Shown here piece by piece: positions 32,352 through 52,683 of a stretch of 57,380 nt of DNA; within the stretch, counting starts at the first letter, position 1; every line of letters begins with the position of its first letter. The notes under the pieces are model-generated. The model searched no databases. It was not told where the DNA came from and worked only from the letters and a program-made list of their open reading frames with translations. The position numbers and the translations under genes were made by a program. Source of the DNA: Candidatus Onthousia excrementipullorum (lineage in GTDB: Bacteria > Bacillota_I > Bacilli_A > RF39 > UBA660). Where the stretch lies: NCBI GenBank assembly GCA_018712385.1, contig DVHC01000043.1, positions 1 to 57,380 of the forward strand. Reading direction: 5' to 3'.

Positions 32352-32948
32352 TTAGACAATCTTTTTTTCTTTTATCTTTTTATAAATATAAGTAATTAAT
32401 AATACTCCTAATAATATGTAGATAGGTACCTTTAACTTCTTTACAAAATTATCTAAGATTATCCAGTTGTTACCTAGGGCATAACCAACATAGACAAAGG
32501 CAAAGGTCCAAGGAATACTACCTAGTGTGGTATAAATAACAAACTTAATAAATGGTACTTTACTAACTCCCATAGGTAGAGATATTAAAGTTCTAATTAT
32601 AGGAAAATTTCTTCCGATAAAAGCAGCCCAAGGCCCATATTTATTAAACCATCTATCGCATTTTTCTACATCTTCTTCTTTCATAAAGAAAAACTTACCA
32701 TAAGTCTTTATAAAAGGCCTTCCTCCAAAATATCCAAAAGCATAAATAATAATTGCACAAAATACACTACCAAGAACTCCTATTAGTAAGGCCATAGAAA
32801 AAGAAAATATTCCTCTTCCTGCTAATATTCCTGCTGTCGCTAATATTAACTCGCTAGGAATAATTATTATAACGGCTTCTAGTACCATACCAAGAAACAT
32901 CCCAAAATATCCTAAATTAGTCATTAAAGAAGTAATATAAGAATCCAT
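32352..32948 (-). CDS. DedA family membrane protein
   Basis: 198 aa and polytopic. It contains the segments GRPFIKTYGKFFF and GRNFPIIRTLISLPMG. Confidence 0.8.
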   Translation of the reverse strand: MDSYITSLMTNLGYFGMFLGMVLEAVIIIIPSELILATAGILAGRGIFSFSMALLIGVLGSVFCAIIIYAFGYFGGRPFIKTYGKFFFMKEEDVEKCDRWFNKYGPWAAFIGRNFPIIRTLISLPMGVSKVPFIKFVIYTTLGSIPWTFAFVYVGYALGNNWIILDNFVKKLKVPIYILLGVLLITYIYKKIKEKKIV

Positions 32949-33043
32949 TTAATCACCTTTACTTAAATATATGTTAAAAAAAACTCTTTATCTCATAAAT
33001 ATTACGTATAATTTTAGTAAATAATAATATTGGGGTGAATTCT

Positions 33044-34318
33044 ATGAATATTAAACCTTTAAGAGTTTTGATTATTGTAACTATATTTACTAGTGTAATA
33101 TCTATAGGTTGTGGAATCTTTATTTATAATGATATGAAAGAAAGAGAGGAAGTCTCTTTAAATGTTTCTAGAGCTAGGAAATCTTTAATAAAAGATGAAG
33201 ATGTTTTGATTAAGATAAAATCTAATTATAATAGTAATGTTAAGACTACTAAAGATACTAAACTTTATATAAAAGATAATGATGAATATAAAGATGCAGG
33301 TAGTATAAATAAAAATAATATTTTAGAACTTGAAATAGTAGATAATATTAGTTTAGATAATAAATATTTTAAACTATTAGATAGTGATTATTATGTTTCT
33401 TATAAAGATGTAGAGCCTACTAGTGATACTATTAATAAAAGATATCTTAACTATATAGAGTTTCCATTAGAGGTTACTATTAAAGAAAATATTACTTATT
33501 ATGAAGATGACTTTAAGGAGTTATTTACCTTAAAAAATCCTGTAACTACTAAAGTAGTAGTTAACTTAGATGATTATTATGGTATATCTTTATTATCAAG
33601 ATTAGTCTATGTTAAAAAAGAAGATGTTAGTAACACTATAGAAGTAGATAGCAGTGAAGAAATAGCTGTGTCTGTTCCTGCAATACTTTATCATTTTATT
33701 TATTTAGATGGTGATAATAGTTGTAATGATATAATTTGTCATAGTGAAGAACAAATAGACTCTCATTTTAAGTTTTTAAGTGATAACGATGTTTTTACAC
33801 TAAATACTAGTGAAGTGTTAAGCTTTATTAAGGGTGAGATTAATCTTCCTAAAAAGTCTATTTTAATTACTATTGATGATGGGGCAAGAGCGGAGAACTT
33901 TATTCCTTTCTTAGAGAAGTATGGTTTAAATGCAACTTTGTTTTTAGTTAGTTCATGGTACCCTGTTAGTAAGTTTCAATCTCCTTATTTGGAGATAGCA
34001 AGTCATACTCATAATATGCATACAACTGGTGTTTGTCCTACTGGTCAAGGAGGTGGGATTAACTGTTTACCAGAAAAAGAAATCTTAAATGATTTAAAAC
34101 TTAGTAGAGAAACATTAAATAATACTAAAGCCTTTTGTTTTCCTTTCTATGAATATAGTGACTATTCTATTAACTTAGTTAAAGAAGCAGGCTTTGAAAT
34201 GGCTTTTATTGGCGGTTCAACTAAAATAAAAAAGGGCATAGACCCTTATAAAATACCAAGATATCCTATTTTAAGTAGTTTTGGTGTAGATTATATAAGT
34301 AACTTAGTGTTAGGTTAA
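33044..34318 (+). CDS. Membrane-anchored polysaccharide deacetylase (NodB domain)
   Basis: It has an N-terminal TM. The NodB motifs are ITIDDGARAEN and ASHTHNMH. ATG 33044 is preferred over GTG 33035. Confidence 0.75.
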   Translation: MNIKPLRVLIIVTIFTSVISIGCGIFIYNDMKEREEVSLNVSRARKSLIKDEDVLIKIKSNYNSNVKTTKDTKLYIKDNDEYKDAGSINKNNILELEIVDNISLDNKYFKLLDSDYYVSYKDVEPTSDTINKRYLNYIEFPLEVTIKENITYYEDDFKELFTLKNPVTTKVVVNLDDYYGISLLSRLVYVKKEDVSNTIEVDSSEEIAVSVPAILYHFIYLDGDNSCNDIICHSEEQIDSHFKFLSDNDVFTLNTSEVLSFIKGEINLPKKSILITIDDGARAENFIPFLEKYGLNATLFLVSSWYPVSKFQSPYLEIASHTHNMHTTGVCPTGQGGGINCLPEKEILNDLKLSRETLNNTKAFCFPFYEYSDYSINLVKEAGFEMAFIGGSTKIKKGIDPYKIPRYPILSSFGVDYISNLVLG

Positions 34319-34358
34319 TATTTACGAAAATTCGTAACTAATTTATTACATATTTCTC

Positions 34359-34387
34359 TTGTTATATAGAATTTAATATGATACTAT
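34359..34387 (+). promoter_or_regulatory. Promoter of the small-peptide (toxin-like) transcript, copy 1
   Basis: TTGTTA (34359-34364), a 17-nt spacer and TACTAT (34382-34387), with an extended -10 TG at 34379-34380. Confidence 0.6.
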
Positions 34388-34447
34388 ATTTATAGGAACA
34401 TTTATGTGGGTGTCGCCTCTATTTTTAATGAGAGGAGGACTTAAAAA

Positions 34448-34540
34448 GTGAAGATGAAAACTTTTATATTGAAGCTTTTAAAATCTGTCGCTTTGGTTAT
34501 TATAAGTCTTACCTTATTGATAGTGGCTATAAAGATATAA
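34448..34540 (+). CDS. 30-aa hydrophobic peptide, candidate type I toxin (copy 1)
   Basis: AGGAGG (34433-34438), a 9-nt spacer and a GTG start. The peptide is MKMKTFILKLLKSVALVIISLTLLIVAIKI. A paralog lies at 37620-37715. Confidence 0.55.
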   Translation: MKMKTFILKLLKSVALVIISLTLLIVAIKI

Positions 34541-34545
34541 AATAA

Positions 34546-34565
34546 GACACTCTGCATAGAGTGTC
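34546..34565. terminator. Bidirectional hairpin shared by the peptide mRNA and the convergent antisense transcript (copy 1)
   Basis: GACACTCT-GCAT-AGAGTGTC, with U-rich sequence on the minus-strand side (TTATTTTAT). Confidence 0.55.
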
Positions 34566-34649
34566 GAACTCAAAAAAATTATGAGGTAACATTCATGCAC
34601 AAAATAAATGTTCCTTTTTTTAGTTTATGTAAATTTCTTTTACATATTC

Positions 34650-34678
34650 ATAGTATCATAAATATTAAATTTTGTCAA
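34650..34678 (-). promoter_or_regulatory. Convergent antisense promoter (candidate antitoxin RNA), copy 1
   Basis: The minus strand has TTGACA (34678-34673), a 17-nt spacer and TACTAT (34655-34650), preceded by TG. Confidence 0.6.
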
Positions 34679-34752
34679 AAATCAATTTCAAATAGATAGA
34701 TAAAAATATAATTTTATTATATAATAATTACAAGTTATGAGGTGAGATATTT

Positions 34753-37308
34753 ATGGATGATAGAACTATGATTACAGAATTATCAAATATGACTTTGCCA
34801 ACTTTTATAAGAAAGTTTAATTTAATGACTTTAGATGAAAAAACTAAATTACTTAATAATCCTTATTTAGATGAATTAAATGAAGTAATATTTTCTTCTT
34901 TATTTTTACAAGTTCAAAATATGACTGAAGTTAGAGAATTACTTAATAGCAAAAAAATCTTTCATAAAGTATTAACTTCTCCTAAAAATAAGAAAAAAAG
35001 AAATATTCTTAATATTATAGGTGAAGAAAATTTGCCATTACTAAAATATATTTTTGAAAGTGATTATATTTTAGATTATAAAGAACAATTCCTTGACTAT
35101 ATAGATTCTATTGATTATGAACAGTTTAGAAAAGTCTTAGAAAATATTAATTTAACAAAGTTATATCATCTTTTTTTCAAAGAAAATAATATAGAAGAGT
35201 TAGAAAATATAATTGGTATTTCTTCTCTTAATAAAGATATCTCTTCATCTTTCTTTCAAAAAGTGAAAATGAATATCTTAAATCCATTAGGCGTTTTAAA
35301 AATTAAAAATGAAAAAGAATTAGTACTTTATACTAAATTTGGCTTGTTAATAGAGGTTTTAGAAGAACTACCTGAAATAACTTTCAAAAATGGTGTAGTT
35401 TTACCATATCAAAATATCTTAGATGTAAAAGAAGGTAAAGTAAATAAATTAATATCTCTATTAAAAGAAAAAGGTGATTATTTAGAAGAAGATCTACTAG
35501 AAGTAAGCTTAAAACTTTATTATATTTTTGATTATGATAATGCTAGAAATATTATACTTGATAAGTTTACTAATATTACTCCTAGTGCTATTAATAGAAT
35601 TATAGATTTTAACTTTAAAGACCATAGAAGAGAATATCGTACTAAACATCAAGAACGTTTTTATCATTATGGTATGGAAAATGAAGTTGTAGATGCTCTA
35701 AACAATAATGATTATAACTTTTTCTCTAATCTTTTATATGATGCTGATGAAGAGAAAATTTTATGGTTAAGAGATGAGTTTTTAAAGATAGTATCTATGA
35801 ATAAAGATAATAAAAACTTAAATGAAGCTTTAAAAGTAAAATTATTAGAGTTAATTAATGAAAGAGAAAGTAAAGCGAAAGAGGATTATGCTAAAGATAT
35901 AAGAAAGCGTTTATCTTCTAAGACTGATAAAAAGTTATCTGTAAATGATTTAAAAGAACTGTTTAAAGATGTTTCTCTTGTTAATTTATTAAATAATTAT
36001 GATCAAGATATACTTGTAAGATTAAGACAGTTCTTACTAGGTAACCTTAAAGATAATAATGATTGCCTTCTTCGCTTAATTATAAATAAAGAAGCCCTTG
36101 GCTTAAATAATTTACTTGGTAAGTTGATAAATCAATATGATTTAATAGAGTCTATTGCTAAGAAAAATAAATTATCTTTAAATTCAATCCTTGATGTTAT
36201 TGATATAGTTAAAACAAGTTTTTTCTCACTTAAACCTAATGAACAAGATATATTTTTATCAACAATTGCTAACATAATCTCATCTAAAGAATATTGTACT
36301 GGTAAGAGTGAAGAAGAAATATTAAAAGAAACATGTCAATTACATGTAGAAAGAAAAAGTAAGGTTTATGCTTCAATACCTACTATAGAAGGTGAAAGTG
36401 ATAGTTTTTCTTATAGAGTCGCTCCTTTTGATGCCGAATATTTATTAGCAGCAGGAGTAGATGCTAAAAACTGTTTTCGTATTTCTGGAAAAGGAGAAGA
36501 TTTCTTCCGTTATTGTCTTACAAGTAATCAAGCCGTTATTATGTATTTTACTAACGAAAAGACTAATCATACTTATATATGTCCAATAATTCGTAGTGGT
36601 AATGCTATTCATTGTAATGGTGTAGATCCTAAACTTCCTCTAGATGAAAGAGACGACTTTTTTAAAGCTTTTACTAAGGCAATGAATGAAATAATAATGA
36701 TAAGTTCTAATGAAAGTATTGATAGTGAAAGAATTGAAGTTGCAACTATTACTAATTTACATTTGGAAGATTATTTTAGGGAAAATAGTTATTTAAAATA
36801 TCAACTTGAAACCTATATACCAATAGATTGCCCTTGCTATACTGACTATAATAAGAAAGATAAAGAGAACTATATTATTTCTAAAAGTGATGATTATAAA
36901 GATAATAAATATTATTTAGCGAAAGACAAGTTTTATCAGAAAAGAAAAGAAGATTATGAATTTAATATTGATAAAGAATATGATAAAGAAAGACTATCTT
37001 TAATAGTTAATTCTATCGCTTATTCTGCTATTGATTATAAAAATATTTCTCCATCTTTAAAAAATAGAGCCAAAAGAACTTTTAAACTAATTGATGTTAA
37101 TACTTTTAAATATATAGTAGGAAATAAAGACTGGTATGTGGCAATAGATGATCAATATAATATTTTAGCAAATTTACTACCTTACGATGAAAGAGCTAAA
37201 AAAGAATATATTAAGCATCTAGCACAAGCTCCTTTATTAATAGAAAATATGGAAAAAGAGGAGGAAGAGTATGGAATTAGTAGGGAAAATTTATCAAAAA
37301 ATAAATAG
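34753..37308 (+). CDS. Orphan 851-aa protein with no family recognised by eye
   Basis: The RBS is GAGGTGA. The ORF is long, uninterrupted and helix-rich. The C-terminal region contains conserved-looking Cys/His residues (AKNCFRISGKGEDFFRYC, NAIHCNGVDP). Confidence 0.7.
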   Translation: MDDRTMITELSNMTLPTFIRKFNLMTLDEKTKLLNNPYLDELNEVIFSSLFLQVQNMTEVRELLNSKKIFHKVLTSPKNKKKRNILNIIGEENLPLLKYIFESDYILDYKEQFLDYIDSIDYEQFRKVLENINLTKLYHLFFKENNIEELENIIGISSLNKDISSSFFQKVKMNILNPLGVLKIKNEKELVLYTKFGLLIEVLEELPEITFKNGVVLPYQNILDVKEGKVNKLISLLKEKGDYLEEDLLEVSLKLYYIFDYDNARNIILDKFTNITPSAINRIIDFNFKDHRREYRTKHQERFYHYGMENEVVDALNNNDYNFFSNLLYDADEEKILWLRDEFLKIVSMNKDNKNLNEALKVKLLELINERESKAKEDYAKDIRKRLSSKTDKKLSVNDLKELFKDVSLVNLLNNYDQDILVRLRQFLLGNLKDNNDCLLRLIINKEALGLNNLLGKLINQYDLIESIAKKNKLSLNSILDVIDIVKTSFFSLKPNEQDIFLSTIANIISSKEYCTGKSEEEILKETCQLHVERKSKVYASIPTIEGESDSFSYRVAPFDAEYLLAAGVDAKNCFRISGKGEDFFRYCLTSNQAVIMYFTNEKTNHTYICPIIRSGNAIHCNGVDPKLPLDERDDFFKAFTKAMNEIIMISSNESIDSERIEVATITNLHLEDYFRENSYLKYQLETYIPIDCPCYTDYNKKDKENYIISKSDDYKDNKYYLAKDKFYQKRKEDYEFNIDKEYDKERLSLIVNSIAYSAIDYKNISPSLKNRAKRTFKLIDVNTFKYIVGNKDWYVAIDDQYNILANLLPYDERAKKEYIKHLAQAPLLIENMEKEEEEYGISRENLSKNK

Positions 37309-37474
37309 TAGTAGTGGTTATATTTTAGGAAGTGATGGGAAGTTATATTTATATTTTTGTTATGATTTTTTAGAAGATTTTGATGATAAAATAGGAGAAG
37401 TTGTTTTATTTAAGCCGGTAGATTCTAAAATATTAAGAGCAACTTATATTTCTAAATATTATGGTGAGGATTAG
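37271..37474 (+). CDS. 67-aa protein overlapping the end of the 851-aa gene, possibly with a cold-shock/OB-like fold
   Basis: AGGAGG (37258-37263), a 7-nt spacer and ATG. It overlaps the upstream ORF by 38 nt. The pattern GKIYQKINSSSGYILGSDGKLYLYF...IGEVVLFKP loosely resembles a cold-shock domain. Confidence 0.5.
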   Translation: MELVGKIYQKINSSSGYILGSDGKLYLYFCYDFLEDFDDKIGEVVLFKPVDSKILRATYISKYYGED

Positions 37475-37531
37475 ATTTTAATGCTAATTTATATTTGCGA
37501 AAATTAGTAACTAATTTATTACATTTTTTTC

Positions 37532-37560
37532 TTGTTATATAGAATTTAATATGATACTAT
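37532..37560 (+). promoter_or_regulatory. Promoter of the small-peptide transcript, copy 2
   Basis: TTGTTA (37532-37537), a 17-nt spacer and TACTAT (37555-37560), with TG at 37552-37553. Confidence 0.6.
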
Positions 37561-37619
37561 ATTTATAGGGACATTTATGTGGGTGTCGCCTCCTATTCTA
37601 TAGGAAAGGAGGAAAAGGT

Positions 37620-37715
37620 ATGAAGACAAAGACTTTTATTATAAAAGTACTAAAGCTTATTCCTTTAATTTTATTGAGTCTTTCTTTCTTAGTTCTAACC
37701 TTCAAAATAAAATAG
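37620..37715 (+). CDS. 31-aa hydrophobic peptide, candidate type I toxin (copy 2)
   Basis: AGGAGG, a 7-nt spacer and ATG. The peptide is MKTKTFIIKVLKLIPLILLSLSFLVLTFKIK. Confidence 0.55.
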   Translation: MKTKTFIIKVLKLIPLILLSLSFLVLTFKIK

Positions 37716-37819
37716 ACACTCTGCATTAGAGTGCCACACATAGAATATATGAGGTGACATTCACTTGCAACCTAAATGTTCCTCATTTTTTATTTTATGT
37801 AAATTTCTTTTACACATTC

Positions 37820-37848
37820 ATAGTATCATAAATATTAACTTTTGTCAA
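37820..37848 (-). promoter_or_regulatory. Convergent antisense promoter, copy 2
   Basis: The minus strand has TTGACA (37848-37843), a 17-nt spacer and TACTAT (37825-37820). Confidence 0.6.
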
Positions 37849-38009
37849 AAATCAATTTAATTTTAATTTAAGATAATAGTATATCTAATTTTCAAAGTAA
37901 TTAGATGTCTTTCCACTCGCATTGTAACATAATTTTTTCTAAATAGATAGATAAAAATATAATTTTATTATATAATTATTTTAGAAACGATAGAAAAGAG
38001 TGATGATAT

Positions 38010-41000
38010 ATGAAAAAAATAATGGATGGAAATGAAGCTTGTAGTTATGTTTCATATAATTTTACGGAAGTTGCAGGTATATATCCTATAACTCCTGCAT
38101 CTCCTATGGCAGAACTTACTGATAAATGGGCTAATGAGGGTAAACTTAATTACTTTAATCAACCTGTTAAAGTAGTAGAAATGGAAAGTGAAGCAGGGGC
38201 TGCTGGTATGGTTCATGGTTCTTTGCAGGCTGGATGCTTAACTACTACTTATACTGCTAGTCAAGGCCTTTTATTAATGATACCTAATATGTATAAGATA
38301 GCAGGAGAATTACTTCCTTGTGTTATTAATGTAGCGGCTAGAAGTCTTGCAACTCATGCTTTATCAATCTTTGGTGACCATCAAGATGTTTATGCGGCAA
38401 GAAGTACAGGTTTTGCTATACTTGCCTCATCTTCAGTTCAAGAAGTTATGGATTTAACAGGTGTGGCACATCTATCTGCTATTAAAGGTAGAGTTCCTTT
38501 TATGAACTTTTTTGATGGCTTTAGAACAAGTCATGAACTACAAAAGATAGATGTAATTGACACTAATAAATTAAAAAAACTTGTCGATAAGAAAGCACTT
38601 GATGCTTTTCGTAAGAGAAGTCTTCATCCTGATAATCCTGTAACTCGTGGTACTAGTGAAAATGATGATATTTACTTTCAAGCGGCAGAAGTTAGAAATA
38701 AATACTATTTAGAATTACCTGATATTGTTAACGAATATATGCAGGAGATTAATAAAATAACCGGTAGAAACTATGCACCATTTAATTATTATGGAAGACG
38801 TGATGCTACTAAAGTAATAGTTGCCATGGGTAGTGTTTGTGAGACTATTAAAGAAGTAGTAGATTATTTAAATGACAACGGGGAAAAAGTTGGAGTTGTA
38901 GAAGTACATTTATATAGGCCTTTTTCAAGAGAATATTTCTTAAAGAGTATTCCTAAGACTGTTAAGATGATTGCTGTTCTTGATAGAACTAAAGAAGCAG
39001 GAAGTACTGGTGAACCATTATTCCTTGATGTAGATAATATTATTAAGTCATTAGGTAGTGATATTAAAGTAGTAGGAGGAAGATATGGACTTTCTAGTAA
39101 AAATACTAATCCTGCAATGATAAAAGCAATATATGATAATTTAGAATCTATTAATCATAATTTTACTATTGGAATTGATGATGATGTTACTAATTTAAGT
39201 ATTCCTTATGATAAAGAGTTTAACTTACCACATCGTAATCAAACATCATTCCTTGTTTATGGTTATGGAAGTGATGGAATGGTTTCAGCTTGTAAAGATT
39301 TAATGAAGATAACAGGAGATGCTACTGATGCTTATGTTCAAGGTTATTTCCAATATGATTCTAAAAAGTCAGGTGGAGTTACGCTTAGTCATTTAAGATT
39401 TTCTAAGAATCCTATTAGGTCTACTTATTATGTCGGTAGAGCTAAGTTGTTAGTTTGTACCCAAGATGCTTATCTTACTAAGTTTAGATTTATTAATAAA
39501 ATAAAGAAGAATGGAGTATTCCTTCTTAATAGTAGTAAGACTGATGAGGAAATACTTTCAATGATAAGTAGCGAAGATAAGAAATATATCATTGATAATA
39601 ATATAAAAGTATATGTAGTTAATGCTTATAAAGTTGCTAAAAAAGAAGGACTTGGTAATAAAATTAGTGCAATTATGGAAGCTTTAATCTTTAAGTTTGG
39701 ACATATTATTGATAGTGATTATGCTATTAATAAGTTAAAAGATAATCTTGATATTAGATTTAAACTTAAAGGAAATAATATAGCAGAGAAAAATAAAAAA
39801 GCTGTTGATAATGCTATTAATACAACTCATTTACTTAAGATAGATGAAAATAGTGATGATTATGTAGAAGTAAGTGAGATTAGTTCTAGTTTATTTGATA
39901 TTATTGATAAAAGAGAAGGTGATACTCTTCCTGTTAGTGCTTTCTTAGATAGACCTGATGGTACTGTTGATGGAGGACTATCACGACTTGAAAAACGTGA
40001 TATTAGTGAAGTCGTTCCTAAATATAAGAGTGAAAACTGTATTAGTTGTAACTTATGTTCTCTAGTTTGTCCTCATGCTGTTATTAGACCATTTTTACTA
40101 GACAAAGATGAGGTAGAGAAAGCTCCTACTAGTTTAAATGATAAACTTTTAGACAGTCATTTAGGAGATAATCTAAAATTTACAATTGCTGTTAGTTATA
40201 AAGATTGTACGGGTTGTGGATTATGTGCTAATATCTGTCCTGGAAAGAAGGGTGCTAAAGCCTTAGAGATGGTAAGTAAAGAAAAACTTGTTAATGATAT
40301 TACTTTAAAAGAGACAGAGTACTTATTTAATGAAGTGACTGAAAAAGATGTGATGAGTGTTAGCACTGTTAAAGGAAGTCAGTTTAAGAAGCCTAGATTT
40401 GAGTTTAGTGGAGCATGTGCTGGTTGTGGTGAGACTCCATACCTTAAGTTATTAACCCAATTATTTGGAGATAGATTAGTTATTGCTAATGCAACAGGTT
40501 GTTCATCAATATATGGGGCTTCTAGTCCTTCAACTCCTTATAGTGTTCCTTGGGCTAATTCCTTATTTGAAGATAATGCCGAGTTTGGTTTTGGTATGAA
40601 GATAGCAGATGAAGTTAAGAAAAATCAGTTAAAGAATATTATAAATGAAAATATCTCTAAAGTAGATGAAGAAGAAAAAGATATCTATTTAGATTATGTA
40701 AATGATATTAATGTAGATACTGCTAAAGCCTTACTTTCTGTTATTCCTCATACTAAGATTAAGCCTTTAAAATCTCTAAAGAAATATATTATGCCTATAT
40801 CTTTATGGGCTGTAGGAGGAGATGGTTGGGCTTATGACATTGGCTATAATGGAATTGACCATGTATTAAACAGTGGAGAAAATGTTAACATCTTAGTTCT
40901 TGATACCGAAGTCTATTCTAATACTGGAGGACAATCTAGTAAGTCTAGTAGGATGGGTGCTGTTTTAAAATTTGCTTCAAGTGGTAAAAAGACTGCTAAA

Positions 41001-41438
41001 AAAGACCTTTTAAGAATAGCTTTAACTAATCCTAATGTTTATGTAGGAGCGATATCTTTAGGAGCTAATCCTGCTGCTACTGTTAAAGTAATGTTAGAAG
41101 CTGAAAAATATAATGGGCCTAGTATCATAGTAGCATATTCTCCATGTATTGCTTGGGGTATCTTAAAGGGAATGAGTAATTCTATTGATGAAGAGAAAAA
41201 AGCAACAAGTAGTGGTTATTTCCCAATATTTCATTATAATCCAGATACTAAAGAGTTTAAAATGGATGCTAAAAGTGATTTTAATAAATATCAGGACTAT
41301 TTAACGGGAGAAGATAGATATAAATCATTAAAAATAATAAATAGTGATGAAGCAGATACTTTACTTAAAGAAAATGAAGATAATGCTAAGGGAAGATATG
41401 AATATTATGAAAGTCTAACTATTAAAAATGAGGAGTAG
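38010..41438 (+). CDS. nifJ: Pyruvate:ferredoxin (flavodoxin) oxidoreductase
   Basis: 1142 aa. The N-terminus is MDGNEACSYVSYNFTEVAGIYPITPASPM. The two 4Fe-4S motifs are CISCNLCSLVCPH and CTGCGLCANICP. The TPP region is GGDGWAYDIG. Confidence 0.95.
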   Translation: MKKIMDGNEACSYVSYNFTEVAGIYPITPASPMAELTDKWANEGKLNYFNQPVKVVEMESEAGAAGMVHGSLQAGCLTTTYTASQGLLLMIPNMYKIAGELLPCVINVAARSLATHALSIFGDHQDVYAARSTGFAILASSSVQEVMDLTGVAHLSAIKGRVPFMNFFDGFRTSHELQKIDVIDTNKLKKLVDKKALDAFRKRSLHPDNPVTRGTSENDDIYFQAAEVRNKYYLELPDIVNEYMQEINKITGRNYAPFNYYGRRDATKVIVAMGSVCETIKEVVDYLNDNGEKVGVVEVHLYRPFSREYFLKSIPKTVKMIAVLDRTKEAGSTGEPLFLDVDNIIKSLGSDIKVVGGRYGLSSKNTNPAMIKAIYDNLESINHNFTIGIDDDVTNLSIPYDKEFNLPHRNQTSFLVYGYGSDGMVSACKDLMKITGDATDAYVQGYFQYDSKKSGGVTLSHLRFSKNPIRSTYYVGRAKLLVCTQDAYLTKFRFINKIKKNGVFLLNSSKTDEEILSMISSEDKKYIIDNNIKVYVVNAYKVAKKEGLGNKISAIMEALIFKFGHIIDSDYAINKLKDNLDIRFKLKGNNIAEKNKKAVDNAINTTHLLKIDENSDDYVEVSEISSSLFDIIDKREGDTLPVSAFLDRPDGTVDGGLSRLEKRDISEVVPKYKSENCISCNLCSLVCPHAVIRPFLLDKDEVEKAPTSLNDKLLDSHLGDNLKFTIAVSYKDCTGCGLCANICPGKKGAKALEMVSKEKLVNDITLKETEYLFNEVTEKDVMSVSTVKGSQFKKPRFEFSGACAGCGETPYLKLLTQLFGDRLVIANATGCSSIYGASSPSTPYSVPWANSLFEDNAEFGFGMKIADEVKKNQLKNIINENISKVDEEEKDIYLDYVNDINVDTAKALLSVIPHTKIKPLKSLKKYIMPISLWAVGGDGWAYDIGYNGIDHVLNSGENVNILVLDTEVYSNTGGQSSKSSRMGAVLKFASSGKKTAKKDLLRIALTNPNVYVGAISLGANPAATVKVMLEAEKYNGPSIIVAYSPCIAWGILKGMSNSIDEEKKATSSGYFPIFHYNPDTKEFKMDAKSDFNKYQDYLTGEDRYKSLKIINSDEADTLLKENEDNAKGRYEYYESLTIKNEE

Positions 41439-42182: not shown

Positions 42183-43052
<870 letters not shown>

Positions 43053-46793: not shown

Positions 46794-48425
46794 ATGGCAA
46801 CAAAAAAAGAAAAAGAGTTAACTTTAGAGCAAGTTTTATGGAATTGTAGAGTTGATTTAAGAGGGTATGGTAGTTTCGAAAAAAATAGAGATGCTGTAAT
46901 TGGTCTTGCGTTCTTAAAATTTGCTAGTGATAAATTTGAAAAAAGAAGAAAAGAAATAATTGAAGAACATGGTAATGTTCCTGCCTTTTTAGAAAAAGTA
47001 TCTTTTTATAACTCAAAGAATGTTTATTATTTAGATGAACATTGTAGGTGGAGTTATTTTGTTAAAGAAGCAGGGTCTAATGATATAGCAGTAAAACTTG
47101 ATAAGGCAATGAAAGATATAGAGGATAAGAATCCACCACTAAAGGGAGCGCTACCTCAAAATATTTATGCATCATTAGGTGTAAGTAAAGAGAAAATGAA
47201 ATCATTAATAGATGATGTAAATATGATTAATGAAGAAAGATTTCATGAGGAAGATTTAATAGGTAGAGTTTATGAATATTTCTTACAAAACTATGCAGCA
47301 TCTGCATCGAAAGATGATGGAGAATTTTATACACCTGCTTGTGTTGTTCAATTAATAGCAGAATTAATAGAACCATATGATGGAATAGTATATGATCCTT
47401 GTTGTGGATCTGGTGGTATGTTTGTTCAATCAATGAAATTTGTTGATAGTCATAAAGGCAATAGAAACAAAGTAACTGTTATGGGTCAAGAAAGCAATCC
47501 TGATACTTGGAGACTTGCAAAAATGAACCTTTCAATTCGTGGTATTGCTTGTGATTTGGGGGATAAAAATGCATCAACATTTACAGATGATCAACATAAA
47601 GATAAAACAGTACAATACATAATGGCAAATCCCCCATTCAATTTAAAAAATTGGAGAGGCGAAGATGAACTACTTGATGATCCAAGATTTAAACCATATA
47701 AGCCTGCTATGCCGCCAAAAGCTAATGCAAACTATGCATGGATACTACATATGCTTTCTAAACTAGATGTAAATAGAGGAATCGCAGGTTTCTTATTAGC
47801 TAATGGAGCATTAAATGCTGGTTCCGGAAGCGATGACGAAGATGATGAAGGTGGACAAGCACAATATTTAATTAGAAAAAAAATATTAGAAGGTGATAAA
47901 GTTGAGGCAATAATTGCTCTACCAAGAGATATGTTTTATACAACTGATATTGCTGTCACTTTATGGATTTTAAATAATAACAAAAAAGCTGGTTCTTTAA
48001 ACGGAAGAAACTTACGTGATAGAACTGGTGAAGTATTATTTATTGATTTAAGACAATGGAATGAAAATATTGAAGAGTATACAATAGATAAAGGTAAAAA
48101 GAAAAAGAAAACTGTATTTAACGAAAGTCAAATAGAAAAGGTAAAAGAAATTTACAACAATTGGCAATCTGTTGAATGTACGAATTCTGACAATTATAAT
48201 GAACCTGAATTGTATAGATCAGTTAAATTGAGTGAAATTAAAAAGAAAAATTATACATTAATTCCAAGTAAGTATATAGAATTCATAGATCAAGATTTAA
48301 ATATAAATTTCGATGAAGAAATGTCAAGAATTCAAAAAGAAATGATTAATATAATGAAATCTGAAAAAGAATCTCAAAAACTATTAGAAGAATCGTTTAA
48401 GGAGATTGGTTATGAAATTAAATAG
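46794..48425 (+). CDS. hsdM: Type I restriction-modification system methyltransferase subunit
   Basis: The SAM motif is DPCCGSGGM and the catalytic motif is NPPFN. The RBS is GGGAGG. Confidence 0.9.
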   Translation: MATKKEKELTLEQVLWNCRVDLRGYGSFEKNRDAVIGLAFLKFASDKFEKRRKEIIEEHGNVPAFLEKVSFYNSKNVYYLDEHCRWSYFVKEAGSNDIAVKLDKAMKDIEDKNPPLKGALPQNIYASLGVSKEKMKSLIDDVNMINEERFHEEDLIGRVYEYFLQNYAASASKDDGEFYTPACVVQLIAELIEPYDGIVYDPCCGSGGMFVQSMKFVDSHKGNRNKVTVMGQESNPDTWRLAKMNLSIRGIACDLGDKNASTFTDDQHKDKTVQYIMANPPFNLKNWRGEDELLDDPRFKPYKPAMPPKANANYAWILHMLSKLDVNRGIAGFLLANGALNAGSGSDDEDDEGGQAQYLIRKKILEGDKVEAIIALPRDMFYTTDIAVTLWILNNNKKAGSLNGRNLRDRTGEVLFIDLRQWNENIEEYTIDKGKKKKKTVFNESQIEKVKEIYNNWQSVECTNSDNYNEPELYRSVKLSEIKKKNYTLIPSKYIEFIDQDLNINFDEEMSRIQKEMINIMKSEKESQKLLEESFKEIGYEIK

Positions 48426-49521
48426 AATTAGATTAGGAGATTATATTAATCAAGTTAATTTAAAAAATAGAAAAGATGAATATACAATTGATTGTGTTAG
48501 AGGAATATCAACACAAAAGAAATTTATTGATACAAAAGCTGATATGACAGGAGTATCATTAAAGAATTATAAAATTGTTAAACCATTTCAATTTGCTTAC
48601 GTACCAGATACATCAAGAAGAGGAGACAAAATTTCTTTAGCTTTTAATGATACAGATAAAACTTTTTTAGTATCTTCAATATCAATTGTTTTTGAAGTAG
48701 ATGCTACTATTATTAATCCTTATTATTTATTTATGTATTTTAATAGGCCAGAATTCGATAGATATACAAGATTTAATTCTTGGGGTTCCGCAAGAGAACC
48801 ATTCGATTGGGATTCAATGTGTGATATTGAAATGGATTTACCAAATTTAGATATTCAAAACAAATATGTTAATATTTATGTTTCTATGAAAGAAAATCAA
48901 TCATCATATGAAAATGGATTAGAAGATTTTAAATTAATATGTGATGGTTATATAGAAAAATTAAAAAAAGATGATATTTTAAAACCATTAGGGAAGTATC
49001 TTACTAGAAGAATGGAAAAAAACAAGGATTTTAGAGTTGAAAAATTAATAGGTGTTGGGAAAGAAGGATTTATTGATCCTAAACAATCAAAGGATGAAAC
49101 AAATGGTCATATATGTTATTTAGTTAAGAAGAATGATTTTGTTTTTGCACCACCTCAATTACATCAAGGTTCTATAGATTATTATACAAATGATGAAGTT
49201 GTTAAATGTTCTGATGCATATATTGTTTTTTATATAAACAATGAGAAAGAACTTGATACAAACTATTTATTGATGTTACTTAAAAATCCAAATATTCAGC
49301 ATATAATATGGTGGTATCGAGATGGTGTAAGGGAACAATTCAACTTTGAGCAATTAAAAGAATTGGAAATTCCTGTACCAGATATTGAAAAACAAAAATC
49401 TATAGCAAATATATATAAGTGTTACTATGAAAGAAAAAAAATTAATGATGAATTAATTAGTAGAATTAGAAATATATGTACAGTTTTAATAAAAGGCTCT
49501 TTATTGGAAGAAAGTAGGTGA
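48406..49521 (+). CDS. hsdS: Type I R-M specificity subunit
   Basis: 371 aa with a two-target-recognition-domain layout. It lies between hsdM and hsdR and overlaps hsdM by 20 nt. Confidence 0.8.
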   Translation: MVMKLNRIRLGDYINQVNLKNRKDEYTIDCVRGISTQKKFIDTKADMTGVSLKNYKIVKPFQFAYVPDTSRRGDKISLAFNDTDKTFLVSSISIVFEVDATIINPYYLFMYFNRPEFDRYTRFNSWGSAREPFDWDSMCDIEMDLPNLDIQNKYVNIYVSMKENQSSYENGLEDFKLICDGYIEKLKKDDILKPLGKYLTRRMEKNKDFRVEKLIGVGKEGFIDPKQSKDETNGHICYLVKKNDFVFAPPQLHQGSIDYYTNDEVVKCSDAYIVFYINNEKELDTNYLLMLLKNPNIQHIIWWYRDGVREQFNFEQLKELEIPVPDIEKQKSIANIYKCYYERKKINDELISRIRNICTVLIKGSLLEESR

Positions 49522-49524
49522 CAT

Positions 49525-52500
49525 ATGAATCAAGTATACGATAACGGAAAGTTTAATGAAGAAGAATTAGAAAATTCATTTATTGAATTGTTTAAATCTC
49601 TTGATTATCAATATGTTTGTGGAGAAAACATTCATAGATATTTTAAAGAGATATTATTATATGATGATTTAGCAAACTATTTAACAACTCGCTATAATGA
49701 GTTGTCAGAAAATGAAATTAAAAGAATAATTAGTATGCTTGATAATGTACCTGCTTTACCATTATATGAAGGAAATAAAGAAACATATAAAATAGTTACT
49801 GAAGGGTTTGATTTCAATAGGGATGATTCAAATTTACTACCAATCCATATTGAATTTATAAATTTTGAAGAGCCAAATAACAATATTTTTAAAATTGTTA
49901 ATCAATATACAGTTGAAGATATTAGACAAAGAAGACCAGATTTATTAGTCTTTATTAATGGTATTCCTGTATCTATTTTTGAATTTAAAACAGCTATTGA
50001 AGAAGATAAAACTGTACATGATGCATGGGAGCAAATAACTATTAGATATGCTAGAGATATACCTAGTTTATTAAAATATAACTTTTTATCAGTTATTAGT
50101 GATGGAGCTAATACAAGATTAGGTACTATTTTTTCTCCATATAAATTTTACTATTCATGGAATAAAATTAATGATGATGAAAAAACAACCAATGGTATAA
50201 GTTCTTTAACTACTATGGTTAAAGGGGTATTTTCAAAAGAAAGATTAGTACATATTTTAAGAGACTTCGTATTTTATCCTGATGATAGTAAAAAATCTGA
50301 GGCAATTGTATGTAGATATCCTCAATACTTTGCTACTGTTAAAATGTTAAATAATTTAACTATACATAAAAGACCTGAGGGTGATGGAAAAGGTGGTATA
50401 TATTTTGGAGCTACTGGATGTGGTAAAACATATACCATGTTATTCTTAGCTAGACAATTAATGCTTAGAGAAAAAGATAATTTCCACAACCCTACAATAA
50501 TAATTATAACTGATAGAGAAGATCTTGACACTCAGGCTTCAAAATTGTTTGTAACTGCTAAAAAATATCTGCATGATAATAATGTTAGAAGTATTGAATC
50601 TAGACAAGATTTACACGATACTTTAGTTAATCGTGAAAGTGGAGGAATATATATCACCACTATCCAAAAATTTTGTGAATCAACAGGATTATTATCTGAT
50701 AGAAGTAATATAATCTGTATTTCTGACGAAGCTCATAGAAGCCAAACTGGAACCGGATCTAAATTAAAGAAAACAGCAGATGGTGTATATACTACATATG
50801 GATTTGCTCATTATTTGAGAGAAAGCTTACCTAATGCAGTTTATTGTGGTTTTACTGGAACACCTATAGATGAAGCGATAGCGGTATTTGGTAGAGTGGT
50901 TGATAGTTATACAATGAAAGAATCAAGTGATGATGGTATAACTGTTAGAATATCTTATGAACCAAGATTAGCAAGAGTATTATTATCTGACGAAGATGCT
51001 AAGGAAATTCAAAAATACTATGATGAATGTGCTGAAGTAGGATCTAACCCAGAACAAATAGAAGAATCTAAAAAAGCCATGAGTAGAATGTCAGCAATTT
51101 TGGGGCATCCTGAAAAATTAAAAAAATTAGCCAAAGATATTGTTAAGCACTTTGAAGCTTTATGTGATGAAAAACCTGAGATTGTACAAAAAGGTATGAT
51201 AGTTTGTTCTGATAGAAAAATAGCATTTAATTTATATAAAGAAATATTAAAATTAAGAAGTGATTGGGGAGTTGCTAAGAAATGTGATGATCCTTCAAAA
51301 TTTACTGCTGATGAATTAGAACAACTAGTTGATGTACCAAAAATTAATATGGTCGCTACTCGTGGAGATAATGATGAACTAGAATTGTATAATTTATGTG
51401 GTACTAAAGAAAAACATAAATTTCTTGATGAACAATTTAAAAACGAAAAATCTAATTTCAAATTAGCTATTGTTGTAGATATGTGGATTACTGGATTTGA
51501 TGTTCCATCTTTATCTGTTATGTATATTGATAAACCATTACAAAAACATACTCTTATACAAACTATTTCTCGTGTTAATAGAATATTTGATGGTAAAGAT
51601 AAAGGAATAGTTGTTGATTATATTGGAATAAAAGATGAAATGCTTCAAGCAGTAAAAATATATGGAGGTCCACAAGAAAGCCCAATTGATGAAATCGAAA
51701 TCTCATTAGGTATTTTTAGAAATCATTTAAAACTAGTAGATGATTTATTTGTCAATTTTAATTCTACAAAATTTTTTAATGGTTCTCCTTTAGATAGATT
51801 AAATTGTTTGAATTTTGGAGCTGAATTTGTACAAGAAACAAAAGATTTAGAAAATCGCTTTATGGGATTATCCAGAACATTAAAAAAAGCATATAACATA
51901 GTTTATCCTACTGGTGAATTATCTGAAGATGAAATTAATAAATCTCAATTTTATTTAGCAATTAGATCAATTATTTTTAAACAAACTATTGGCAATGCAC
52001 CTGATGCTGAAATAATGAATGAAGTAGTAGAAGAAATGGTTAGAAAAGCTATTTCTTGTACTGGCGTTGAAAATATAGTAGGTGAAAAAGAATCATTAGA
52101 ATTCTATACACCCGAGTTTGTTCGTCAATTAGTGGATATAGATTTACCTATAACAAAATTTAACGCTTTATTAAAGCTATTAAAGAAAGCTATTAAAGAC
52201 TATGGAAAAGTAAACAGAATAAAAGCAATTGATTTTGATGAAAGATTAAAAAAAGTTGTTGAAGAATATAATGATAGGGATAAAATGGTATTTACTAATG
52301 AAGTTGTAAAAGAATTTGTTGATGGATTATCTAATGAATTATTATATATTTTAAAAGATTTAGAAGAAGACAAATCATCTTTTGAAGCAATGGGTATATC
52401 ATTTGAAGAAAAAGCTTTCTATGATATTTTAACTAAGATTAGAGATACACACGGATTTGAATATGATGATACTAAATGTGTAGAATTGTCTAAGAAGATT

Positions 52501-52683
52501 AAAGAATTAGTTGATGATAAAACTCAATACGCTGATTTCTTTGTTAGAAATGATATAAGAAGTCAATTAGATGAAGATTTAACAGTATTATTATATAAAA
52601 ATGGATATCCACCAGAGTGGGACGAAGAAGTATTTAATCAAGTAATGCTTCAAGCTGAGAATTTTAAAAAATATAATGGTTAA
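49525..52683 (+). CDS. hsdR: Type I R-M restriction endonuclease/translocase subunit
   Basis: 1052 aa. Walker A is GATGCGKTY and the DEAH box is SDEAHRSQ. Helicase motif VI is QTISRVNR. Confidence 0.9.
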   Translation: MNQVYDNGKFNEEELENSFIELFKSLDYQYVCGENIHRYFKEILLYDDLANYLTTRYNELSENEIKRIISMLDNVPALPLYEGNKETYKIVTEGFDFNRDDSNLLPIHIEFINFEEPNNNIFKIVNQYTVEDIRQRRPDLLVFINGIPVSIFEFKTAIEEDKTVHDAWEQITIRYARDIPSLLKYNFLSVISDGANTRLGTIFSPYKFYYSWNKINDDEKTTNGISSLTTMVKGVFSKERLVHILRDFVFYPDDSKKSEAIVCRYPQYFATVKMLNNLTIHKRPEGDGKGGIYFGATGCGKTYTMLFLARQLMLREKDNFHNPTIIIITDREDLDTQASKLFVTAKKYLHDNNVRSIESRQDLHDTLVNRESGGIYITTIQKFCESTGLLSDRSNIICISDEAHRSQTGTGSKLKKTADGVYTTYGFAHYLRESLPNAVYCGFTGTPIDEAIAVFGRVVDSYTMKESSDDGITVRISYEPRLARVLLSDEDAKEIQKYYDECAEVGSNPEQIEESKKAMSRMSAILGHPEKLKKLAKDIVKHFEALCDEKPEIVQKGMIVCSDRKIAFNLYKEILKLRSDWGVAKKCDDPSKFTADELEQLVDVPKINMVATRGDNDELELYNLCGTKEKHKFLDEQFKNEKSNFKLAIVVDMWITGFDVPSLSVMYIDKPLQKHTLIQTISRVNRIFDGKDKGIVVDYIGIKDEMLQAVKIYGGPQESPIDEIEISLGIFRNHLKLVDDLFVNFNSTKFFNGSPLDRLNCLNFGAEFVQETKDLENRFMGLSRTLKKAYNIVYPTGELSEDEINKSQFYLAIRSIIFKQTIGNAPDAEIMNEVVEEMVRKAISCTGVENIVGEKESLEFYTPEFVRQLVDIDLPITKFNALLKLLKKAIKDYGKVNRIKAIDFDERLKKVVEEYNDRDKMVFTNEVVKEFVDGLSNELLYILKDLEEDKSSFEAMGISFEEKAFYDILTKIRDTHGFEYDDTKCVELSKKIKELVDDKTQYADFFVRNDIRSQLDEDLTVLLYKNGYPPEWDEEVFNQVMLQAENFKKYNG

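Follow-up and report, generated by a model that had tools for sequence, protein, structure and literature searches.

Cold-shock proteins related to CspA and CspB are five-stranded barrels of approximately 65-70 residues. PcfJ-like proteins are widespread in Herelleviridae phages and in conjugative plasmids of Gram-positive bacteria, and no functional study of them was found in the literature searched. Type I toxin–antitoxin (TA) loci with an antisense RNA that overlaps at the 3′ end are represented by TxpA/RatA and BsrG/SR4, and cassettes of this type repeated in intergenic regions by the LDR sequences of E. coli. We compare with these systems a locus from Candidatus Onthousia excrementipullorum, carried on a stretch of 57,380 nucleotides (contig DVHC01000043.1, positions 1 to 57,380) that we call the window. 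Two overlapping genes, encoding proteins of 851 and 67 amino acids (aa), lie there between direct repeats and upstream of the gene for pyruvate:ferredoxin oxidoreductase (PFOR).

We lean towards a composite description of this locus, namely an operon for a thiol-enzyme-like protein and a partner with the fold of a cold-shock domain (CSD), the two forming an old but dispensable pair before which the PFOR promoter region has been copied together with a TA-like cassette. The remaining uncertainty concerns mostly the biochemical mechanism.

The operon and its protein family

The gene for the 851-aa protein, of an unannotated family, occupies positions 34753-37308 and that for the 67-aa protein positions 37271-37474, both on the forward strand. 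The open reading frames (ORFs) overlap by 38 nt, and the smaller has its own ribosome-binding site (RBS), GAGGAGG, placed 8-9 nt 5′ of the ATG and within the 3′ end of the larger. A preliminary description, made from the letters of the window, had reported both ORFs, the overlap and the separate RBS, and a check of the sequence agrees on each point. The two genes are a genuine two-gene operon, translationally coupled. To the left lies the gene for a polysaccharide deacetylase-domain protein (33035-34318, forward strand), the left border of an insertion hot spot; to the right is the PFOR gene (38010-41438, forward strand), the 1142-aa product of which is assigned from Pfam POR_N, PFOR_II and POR matches of an identical protein. 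It is the promoter region of this gene that occurs duplicated at the locus.

The preliminary description regarded the 851-aa protein as an orphan that could be placed in no family. With respect to curated libraries this stands. There is no match in Pfam, NCBIfam, PADLOC or PHROGs, and comparison of the 67-aa protein and of 53 superfamily members with curated libraries gave nothing meaningful; placement in a housekeeping family by profile search, named beforehand as an outcome that would count against an accessory role, did not occur. Weak matches of single members to DUF4116, Clospo_01618-like, Guanylate_cyc_2 and ACTMAP-like_C were taken as noise. Sequence searches of the PDB with the family profiles A2 and A6 returned no match.

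The protein is, however, no orphan. Full-length homologues form 52 clusters (33-98% identity, 809-855 aa), with loci in at least 49 GTDB species, all of them metagenome-assembled genomes (MAGs) from gut Bacilli or 'Tenericutes' that are uncultured, among them Ca. Onthousia and Ca. Faecimonas. A single locus was detected in each of the 49 matching GTDB species genomes, which suggests one copy per species. A profile search of 1.84 billion representatives at E <= 1e-3 extends the group to a superfamily of 467 proteins, clusters being defined at 50% identity. The distant members range from 680 to 1330 aa and have in common only the C-terminal region, from about residue 395/500 to 835, with unrelated N-termini. 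This superfamily of at least 467 clusters is covered by no curated library, and the pair is not a known system.

The sole phage-encoded sequence relative that was found is gp068 of Microcystis phage MaMV-DC (L057:1585-3678), a hypothetical protein of 697 aa that has the superfamily core motif (G..TKCC...G.GE...) in common with distant members (8.9e-12 with a local hidden Markov model, HMM), P0139 being the only one to reach it. A tblastn search of INPHARED found no phage relative of the 851-aa protein, and scans of IMG/VR with A2, P0139 and P0166 found none either.

Structure and conserved residues of the large protein

A model of the 851-aa protein obtained from AlphaFold2 (AF2) with the family alignment has a predicted local distance difference test (pLDDT) score of 87.9 and a predicted template-modelling (TM) score, pTM, of 0.76. 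Residues 1-534 are helical, in keeping with the helical N-terminal two-thirds expected from the sequence. An α/β domain follows at approximately 540-740, with strands 546-556, 594-621, 663-667 and 706-711 and helices between them, and contains the motifs G568..C574, R614-x-G-N617 and N622. Residues 745-840, approximately, form a second α/β subdomain with D793-W794 and D812-x-R814.

Across 121 superfamily members G568 and C574 are conserved in 100%, and P543, G547, Y554, R614, G616, N617, N622, D793, W794 and D812 in 85-99%. The preliminary description had proposed a thiol or metal site built from spaced Cys, His and Asp residues in this part of the protein. Only in part does the alignment agree: C574 is the sole invariant residue among those named, C588 is present in 68%, and H620 and C621 are not conserved. 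N617, N622, D793 and D812 are maintained. Assignment as a papain-like or NlpC-type thiol peptidase was set aside, since the superfamily has no conserved His.

All 50 matches listed by Foldseek against the PDB are GNAT (Gcn5-related N-acetyltransferase; acyl-CoA N-acyltransferase) proteins, over approximately 180 columns and with a probability of up to 0.99. The best is NatD (PDB code 4u9w, E 6.9e-3), followed by SpeG, Gcn5 and RimI. The similarity is weak, with E values from 7e-3 to 0.6 and TM(target) of 0.4-0.58. In the AF2 model the order of elements over residues 546-711 fits the GNAT arrangement β1-α1-α2-β2-β3-β4-α3-β5-α4-β6. The motif Q/R-x-x-G-x-G/A, with which GNAT enzymes bind coenzyme A (CoA) at β4-α3, is absent, and there is no Gly-rich motif in columns 622-632; the β4-α3 loop of the family reads N622-G-[IV]-[DE]-P and the invariant Cys is located in the α1-α2 loop. 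GNAT sequence models (Acetyltransf_1 and related models of Pfam and NCBIfam) gave no score for the 851-aa protein or for 53 superfamily members. The predicted C-terminal domain has weak fold matches, to GNATs only, and we do not file it as a GNAT.

Against BFVD the best Foldseek match is an uncharacterised phage protein (9e-7 over 758 columns). The others are mostly GNATs from giant viruses and phages, together with seven PcfJ-like proteins at E 0.03-0.7 and low TM. Membership of the PcfJ family was considered on the basis of a set comprising pCF10 PcfJ and eight phage PcfJ-like proteins and was rejected, as hmmsearch in both directions and hhalign with full and core regions were not significant. 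The HMM built from these nine proteins scored no family member above E 0.18, and the hhalign probability was 0.3%. The Pfam PcfJ model (PF14284), which covers residues 287-433 of pCF10 PcfJ, gave no score for any family member. No solved PcfJ structure was found for comparison. The relation is kept as a weak structural lead, suggested by the models.

Two aspects of gene context can be recorded for PcfJ itself. The pcfJ gene of pCF10 (L058:15874-17984, reverse strand) runs into the start of a gene of the AcrIIA9 family (anti-Cas9), with a DpnD/PcfM gene nearby, and so lies in an anti-defence-like cluster, while PcfJ-like genes of Herelleviridae are found amid genes of nucleotide metabolism and replication. 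The literature on Onthousia, PcfJ and DUF4116 yielded nothing functional.

The small cold-shock-fold protein

The AF2 model of the 67-aa protein (pLDDT 93.2) is a five-stranded barrel. Foldseek aligns it with CspC, CspE, CspA, CspB, the CSDs of Unr and CRHSP-24, with TM scores of 0.75-0.83, root mean square deviations of 1.5-3 Å and E values down to 2.3e-4. Five strands, a length within the range of 65-70 residues and superposition on CspA and CspB are the attributes of a CSD barrel, and the model has all of them. A profile of the small-protein family matches solved CSDs at 2.5e-4 to 5e-3, the best PDB profile match being the CSD-like C-terminus of a ribosome hibernation factor. The suggestion of a cold-shock or OB fold, made earlier from a sequence pattern, is thus upheld at the level of the predicted fold. 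The family conserves G16, I18 and Y26, and position 17 is always aromatic or hydrophobic in character; the canonical motifs are not kept. Binding of nucleic acid by the 67-aa protein would be in line with this fold.

In most clades the partner follows the large gene. It lies directly 3′ of it, often overlapping, in 24 of 26 loci from the clades nearest to the window, and the remaining two contigs end at or just past the large gene. Among family loci further removed, 12 of 27 have the partner, as does the locus of P0166, a very distant member of 1327 aa; no CSD partner was seen near other distant superfamily members. Where large proteins are 44% identical the small proteins are 52% identical. 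Clustering of 360 neighbouring ORFs indicates that, from clade to clade, the large gene keeps no companion other than the small partner.

Selection, inheritance and neighbourhood

Both genes are under purifying selection. Measured against three congeners, the ratio of nonsynonymous to synonymous divergence (dN/dS) of the large gene is 0.16-0.21, that of the small gene 0-0.15 and that of PFOR 0.05-0.07, and the synonymous divergence (dS) of the pair is similar to that of PFOR in the same comparisons. The pair is present in 21 of 21 contigs that encode the exact PFOR of the window, and its position is fixed in 12 congeners. The position is stable within each genus and differs between genera; the neighbours are housekeeping genes conserved only within genus-level clades (Lon_C and MutS, GyrA, ThyA and YkuD, UppS, Mur ligase). 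The base composition carries no clear foreign signature. In a distant clade (34% identity; L035:8415-10091) uppS is within approximately 700 bp after the pair, and in the window uppS follows PFOR; this proximity may be a remnant of an ancestral linkage of the pair with uppS.

Distribution across an order-level clade, under purifying selection, would suit a housekeeping factor specific to the lineage, such as a modifying enzyme that is associated with RNA or the ribosome and has a subunit resembling an RNA chaperone; the cassette setting would then be incidental. The identity of the neighbours (thyA, gyrA, mutS, uppS and the Mur ligase gene) points the same way, as does a CSD fold, typical of RNA binders, with a hibernation factor domain as its best profile match. 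Yet three independent disruptions by insertion sequences (ISs) and one congener without the pair, described below, indicate that the pair is not essential. Its position changes between genera, there is no consistent adjacency to rRNA, tRNA or ribosomal genes, and several clades have no partner. We consider a housekeeping role of this kind unlikely, while keeping it in view.

The flanking repeats and the promoter copy

Self-comparison of the window reveals two direct repeats on the forward strand, one on either side of the pair. The left repeat (34315-34729) starts directly after the deacetylase stop and combines a type-I-TA-like cassette with a copy of the PFOR promoter region; the right repeat (37488-37980) combines a cassette with the native PFOR promoter. 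The two are approximately 80% identical, the right copy having about 80 extra bases before the shared end. Within the 57-kb window cassettes occur at this locus only.

Each cassette contains an ORF for a Lys-flanked hydrophobic peptide of 30-31 aa, with a strongly conserved region 5′ of the RBS. The left ORF (34448-34540, forward strand, 30 aa, VKMKTFILKLLKSVALVIISLTLLIVAIKI) has the RBS GAGAGGAGGA and is a candidate type I toxin gene; the right ORF (37620-37715, forward strand) encodes MKTKTFIIKVLKLIPLILLSLSFLVLTFKIK. A near-identical peptide recurs in many cassette copies of relatives. Convergent to the left ORF, a scan for promoters and terminators combined with RNA folding identifies a unit at 34536-34678 on the reverse strand that is a candidate antitoxin small RNA (sRNA). 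Its near-consensus promoter, TTGACA-17-(TG)TACTAT, is at 34678-34650, and the predicted RNA of about 108 nt has two hairpins and a U tail, with the terminator hairpin at 34565-34546. The right repeat has a palindromic hairpin at 37715-37735 and a reverse-strand promoter of the type TTGACA-17-TGnTACTAT at 37848-37820. A GC-rich palindromic hairpin is present in each repeat, and the convergent RNAs have fold z-scores of -3.5 (left) and -3.2 (right). A search of the cassettes against Rfam found no match.

At the level of sequence, therefore, the small hydrophobic peptide ORF and the convergent RNA with its own promoter and terminator that mark a type I TA locus are both present. That the pair is flanked by TA-like cassettes, as the preliminary description had it, is supported by the peptide ORFs, the convergent reverse-strand promoters and the folded RNAs. 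Its picture of the pair as the variable cargo is not supported: the part that varies in copy number is primarily the cassette. Congeneric genomes have 0-2 copies ahead of the large gene and 1-4 in the interval from the small gene to PFOR. In L008, L010, L011, L013 and L014 the left cassette is absent and the gap from the deacetylase to the large gene is 47-57 bp.

In other Onthousia species ORFs of 384 and 153 aa, absent from the window, lie between cassette copies of the same spacer (L007:6024-7175, forward strand, and L008:7027-7485, reverse strand), with homologous blocks in L006, L010, L014, L018, L022 and L068. Neither has a Pfam or PADLOC match.

The 3′ ends of the two repeats are formed by an identical 36-mer, AAATAGATAGATAAAAATATAATTTTATTATATAAT, which ends in TATAAT; the window has two copies and no more, 34690-34725 and 37941-37976 on the forward strand; in 100 shuffles no recurrence was expected by chance. 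Both copies contain the promoter-like arrangement TAGATA-17-TATAAT, the left one with TAGATA at 34697 and TATAAT at 34720-34725. The left copy is 27 nt 5′ of the ATG of the 851-aa ORF and the right copy 33 nt 5′ of the ATG of PFOR; the two identical 36-mers and their TATAAT ends agree with the first description. In every relative for which the region upstream of PFOR was read, the 36-mer is found there, differing between species by 0-3 substitutions, and so represents the native PFOR promoter region. It precedes the large gene only in the window, L006, L007, L016, L018 and L022; in L009 just the 3′ part is kept, up to the end of the contig. In L008, L010, L011, L013 and L014 the large gene has its own extended -10 promoter (TGnTATAAT), TATGATATAAT. 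The earlier statement that ties the pair to a copied PFOR promoter is accordingly correct, at the level of sequence, for the lineage of the window.

How might the copy have arrived? The states with and without the left cassette have ATATAATTTAATTA and the 5′ untranslated region (UTR) in common, so that the cassette and promoter copy were probably joined to the large gene by recombination inside the -10/5′-UTR sequence. In the lineage of the window, recombination that ended in the shared sequence ATATAATTnAATTA is the probable route by which a cassette-plus-promoter copy came to lie 5′ of the pair. Comparison with L006 gives dS values of 0.49-0.60 for the DedA and deacetylase genes (32352-34318) and of 0.09-0.14 for the 851-aa gene, the 67-aa gene and PFOR (34753-41438); this discontinuity at the left cassette implies a recombination breakpoint there. 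With the left copy in place the pair is bracketed by direct repeats able to mediate its loss.

History of the site and dispensability of the pair

A metagenome scan with the deacetylase was used to test whether the pair occupies this position universally. It does not. In a sister clade, with a deacetylase of 42-47% identity and a PFOR of 67%, a spacer of 115-281 bp separates the two genes, and it holds only a terminator hairpin and the promoter TTTGTTATATAAT, with neither cassette nor pair. Because the two genes are adjacent in the sister clade, the pair and the cassettes are additions to this intergenic site in Onthousia. A second case is L068, at the level of Onthousia, with a PFOR of 97% amino-acid identity to that of the window though a separate species by nucleotide identity. 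Its order is deacetylase, cassette, the 384-aa ORF, cassette, promoter and PFOR, and the pair is precisely absent. The preliminary description had proposed that the pair was inserted and that the segment 34320-37492 should be compared across relatives; the sister clade and L068 bear out an addition that is not universal, and in L068, one congeneric contig, the pair is missing as a unit. The block of cassette, 384-aa ORF and cassette is 5′ of the pair in L006, 3′ of it in six other species and alone in L068. These arrangements show the deacetylase-PFOR spacer to be a recombination-active site in Onthousia, in which the cassettes are portable repeats, and show that the pair can be lost as a unit; such loss may have occurred through recombination between cassettes.

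ISs interrupt the large gene in three species-representative MAGs (L014:8020-9149, L018:6769-7763 and L022:6769-7674). They are IS5-like, with DDE_Tnp_4/DDE_Tnp_1 transposases, and represent three independent events; the large gene of L022 also lacks residues 257-413. An alternative reading of these interruptions of about 1 kb as inteins was rejected, since they encode DDE_Tnp_4 transposases. Together with L068, the insertions indicate that the pair is dispensable.

All of the insertions are in the large gene and leave the small gene intact, which might be expected of a type II TA-like module with the large Cys enzyme as toxin and the overlapping, coupled CSD protein as antitoxin. GNAT-fold toxins, for example TacT and AtaT, are an established class, and a dispensable pair in which a small 3′ gene with its own RBS overlaps by 38 nt has a suitable layout. 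However, the large gene constitutes approximately 94% of the target, so that hits there are expected by chance. At 851 aa the protein is far above the size of known TA toxins, it occurs in whole clades without the partner, CSD is not a known antitoxin fold, and dS indicates vertical inheritance. We judge a type II TA module highly improbable.

The same observations bear on the mobile or defence function raised in the preliminary description. In an anti-phage or anti-plasmid module the variable N-terminus would act as sensor, the C-terminal Cys enzyme as effector and the CSD protein as adaptor or inhibitor, on an island stabilised by addiction cassettes. Insertion at a hot spot that is specific to Onthousia and lacking in the sister clade, absence as a unit from L068 and IS inactivation in 3 of about 12 congeners would all be compatible with this, as would a superfamily with a constant C-terminal domain and variable N-termini, further unannotated ORFs (384 and 153 aa) at the same hot spot, relatives or structural analogues in phages and conjugative plasmids (MaMV-DC gp068 and the PcfJ-like BFVD matches), and a pCF10 pcfJ gene that adjoins one of the AcrIIA9 family. 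Against it, PADLOC-DB 2.0 matches neither of the two proteins, nor any distant member, nor the unannotated ORFs nearby; IMG/VR contains no relatives and INPHARED none of the family. The neighbours are housekeeping genes, stable within each genus, and not defence genes; a single locus was detected in each of the 49 matching species genomes; dS is similar to that of PFOR, and each of the 21 contigs of the species has the pair. The proteins have no known effector domain, and the borders have no integrase, transposase or other recombinase. The proposal has thus not been borne out, and we regard a defence module as rather improbable. An old pair, inherited mainly vertically, is the reading that we prefer.

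Other features of the window

A type I restriction-modification locus at 46794-52683, in which HsdM and HsdS are called and are followed by a 1052-aa ORF, lies 3′ of recG in the window and at the same site in L094. In L093 and L095, from strains with identical PFOR, a tyrosine integrase and a Mob_Pre relaxase are found 3′ of recG. At 42183-43034, on the reverse strand, the window encodes a collagen-triplet-repeat protein with GPTGATG repeats (Pfam Collagen on the L093 homologue). It is like the BclA-type exosporium proteins, a hint of sporulation in this reduced-genome lineage of Bacilli.

Functional considerations

What might the pair do? We propose that the 851-aa protein, which is cytoplasmic, is a thiol-dependent enzyme of transferase or hydrolase type that would use the conserved C574. 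The CSD partner would bring the enzyme to single-stranded RNA or DNA or to an RNA-bound substrate, or gate its activity there. We read the pair as old and mostly vertically inherited in a clade of uncultured gut Bacilli, with a chromosomal site that differs from genus to genus. In 'Ca. Onthousia' the site is the deacetylase-PFOR spacer, which also gained a variable array of type-I-TA-like cassettes.

Several points weigh against this description. The enzymatic role of the large protein is suggested by conservation and a fold model, so that its biochemical function is something we infer. The role of C574 is deduced from its conservation, with no conserved His alongside, and the GNAT likeness of the model is weak, with neither a sequence match to any GNAT model nor the Q/RxxGxG/A motif. 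The Pfam CSD model gives no score for the 67-aa protein, in which the RNP1 (KGFGFI) and RNP2 (VFVHF) motifs have diverged. The P0043 clade and several distant members have the large gene with no partner beside it, so that the partner is not obligatory. The 36-mer is a predicted promoter, its activity being suggested by a consensus match. With respect to the history of the site, L068 is one metagenome contig, 5.5 kb long and at 8.8x coverage, and as it runs across 370-bp repeats it may have collapsed in assembly; the order of events, insertion of the pair as opposed to loss elsewhere, is likewise one that we infer.

A bolder interpretation can be formulated. The pair may be the founding example of a two-component system in which a GNAT-like enzyme has its CoA site swapped for a catalytic Cys and is directed to single-stranded RNA or DNA by a CSD subunit, with a role in conflict or in nucleic-acid modification, and would then represent the cellular branch of a superfamily of at least 467 clusters remotely related to PcfJ-like proteins. 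We think this distinctly improbable as a complete account.

A sizeable superfamily of 467 clusters with an invariant Cys is now defined, part of it linked genetically to a dedicated cold-shock-fold partner. Should the enzyme have nucleic acids as its target or take part in conflict with phages or plasmids, it would supply the first functional handle on the superfamily and possibly on PcfJ-like proteins. The locus also offers a clean natural example, as judged from sequence comparison, of type-I-TA-like cassettes that serve as portable repeats, apparently copying a central-metabolism promoter before another operon and bracketing genes for rearrangement or loss. If none of these readings is true, what remains is a further pair of conserved hypothetical genes from an uncultured lineage. 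The pair is well delimited, with an active-site hypothesis and an instructive locus history; nothing yet indicates a new mechanism.

Comparison with known systems

The anatomy of the cassettes resembles that of type I TA loci with 3′-convergent antisense RNAs, by analogy with which the peptide and sRNA are candidate toxin and antitoxin. In common with TxpA/RatA, BsrG/SR4 and LDR they have an RBS followed by a hydrophobic peptide ORF, a structured sRNA that converges on it from a near-consensus promoter, a shared bidirectional hairpin and a variable copy number. They have no match in Rfam, and no sequence relation to the named families was shown.

The C-terminal domain of the large protein, at approximately 546-711, shares the element order of GNAT enzymes such as NatD/Naa40, SpeG, Gcn5 and RimI. 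It differs in being embedded in a protein of 851 aa, with a helical region of 530 residues before it and an extra α/β subdomain after. PcfJ-like proteins of conjugative plasmids and Herelleviridae phages are also large, with a helical N-terminus and a C-terminal α/β domain, and inspection by eye suggests the same order of elements and a similar motif (aromatic-x-h-x-P...G-x5-[HN]-C...beta-beta-beta...G/N). A CSD partner was looked for beside phage and plasmid PcfJ genes and, in contrast to the family described here, there is none alongside.

The 67-aa protein has the size and five-stranded barrel of CspA, CspB, CspE, Unr and CRHSP-24, with aromatic residues on β2 and β3 (G16-Y17-I18 and Y26). 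Cold-shock proteins are stand-alone, whereas the 67-aa gene overlaps and is co-inherited with a large enzyme-like gene. The nearest kinds are therefore GNAT-fold enzymes, by fold only; PcfJ-like proteins, to which a relation is unproven; and cold-shock proteins, the fold of which the small partner shares.

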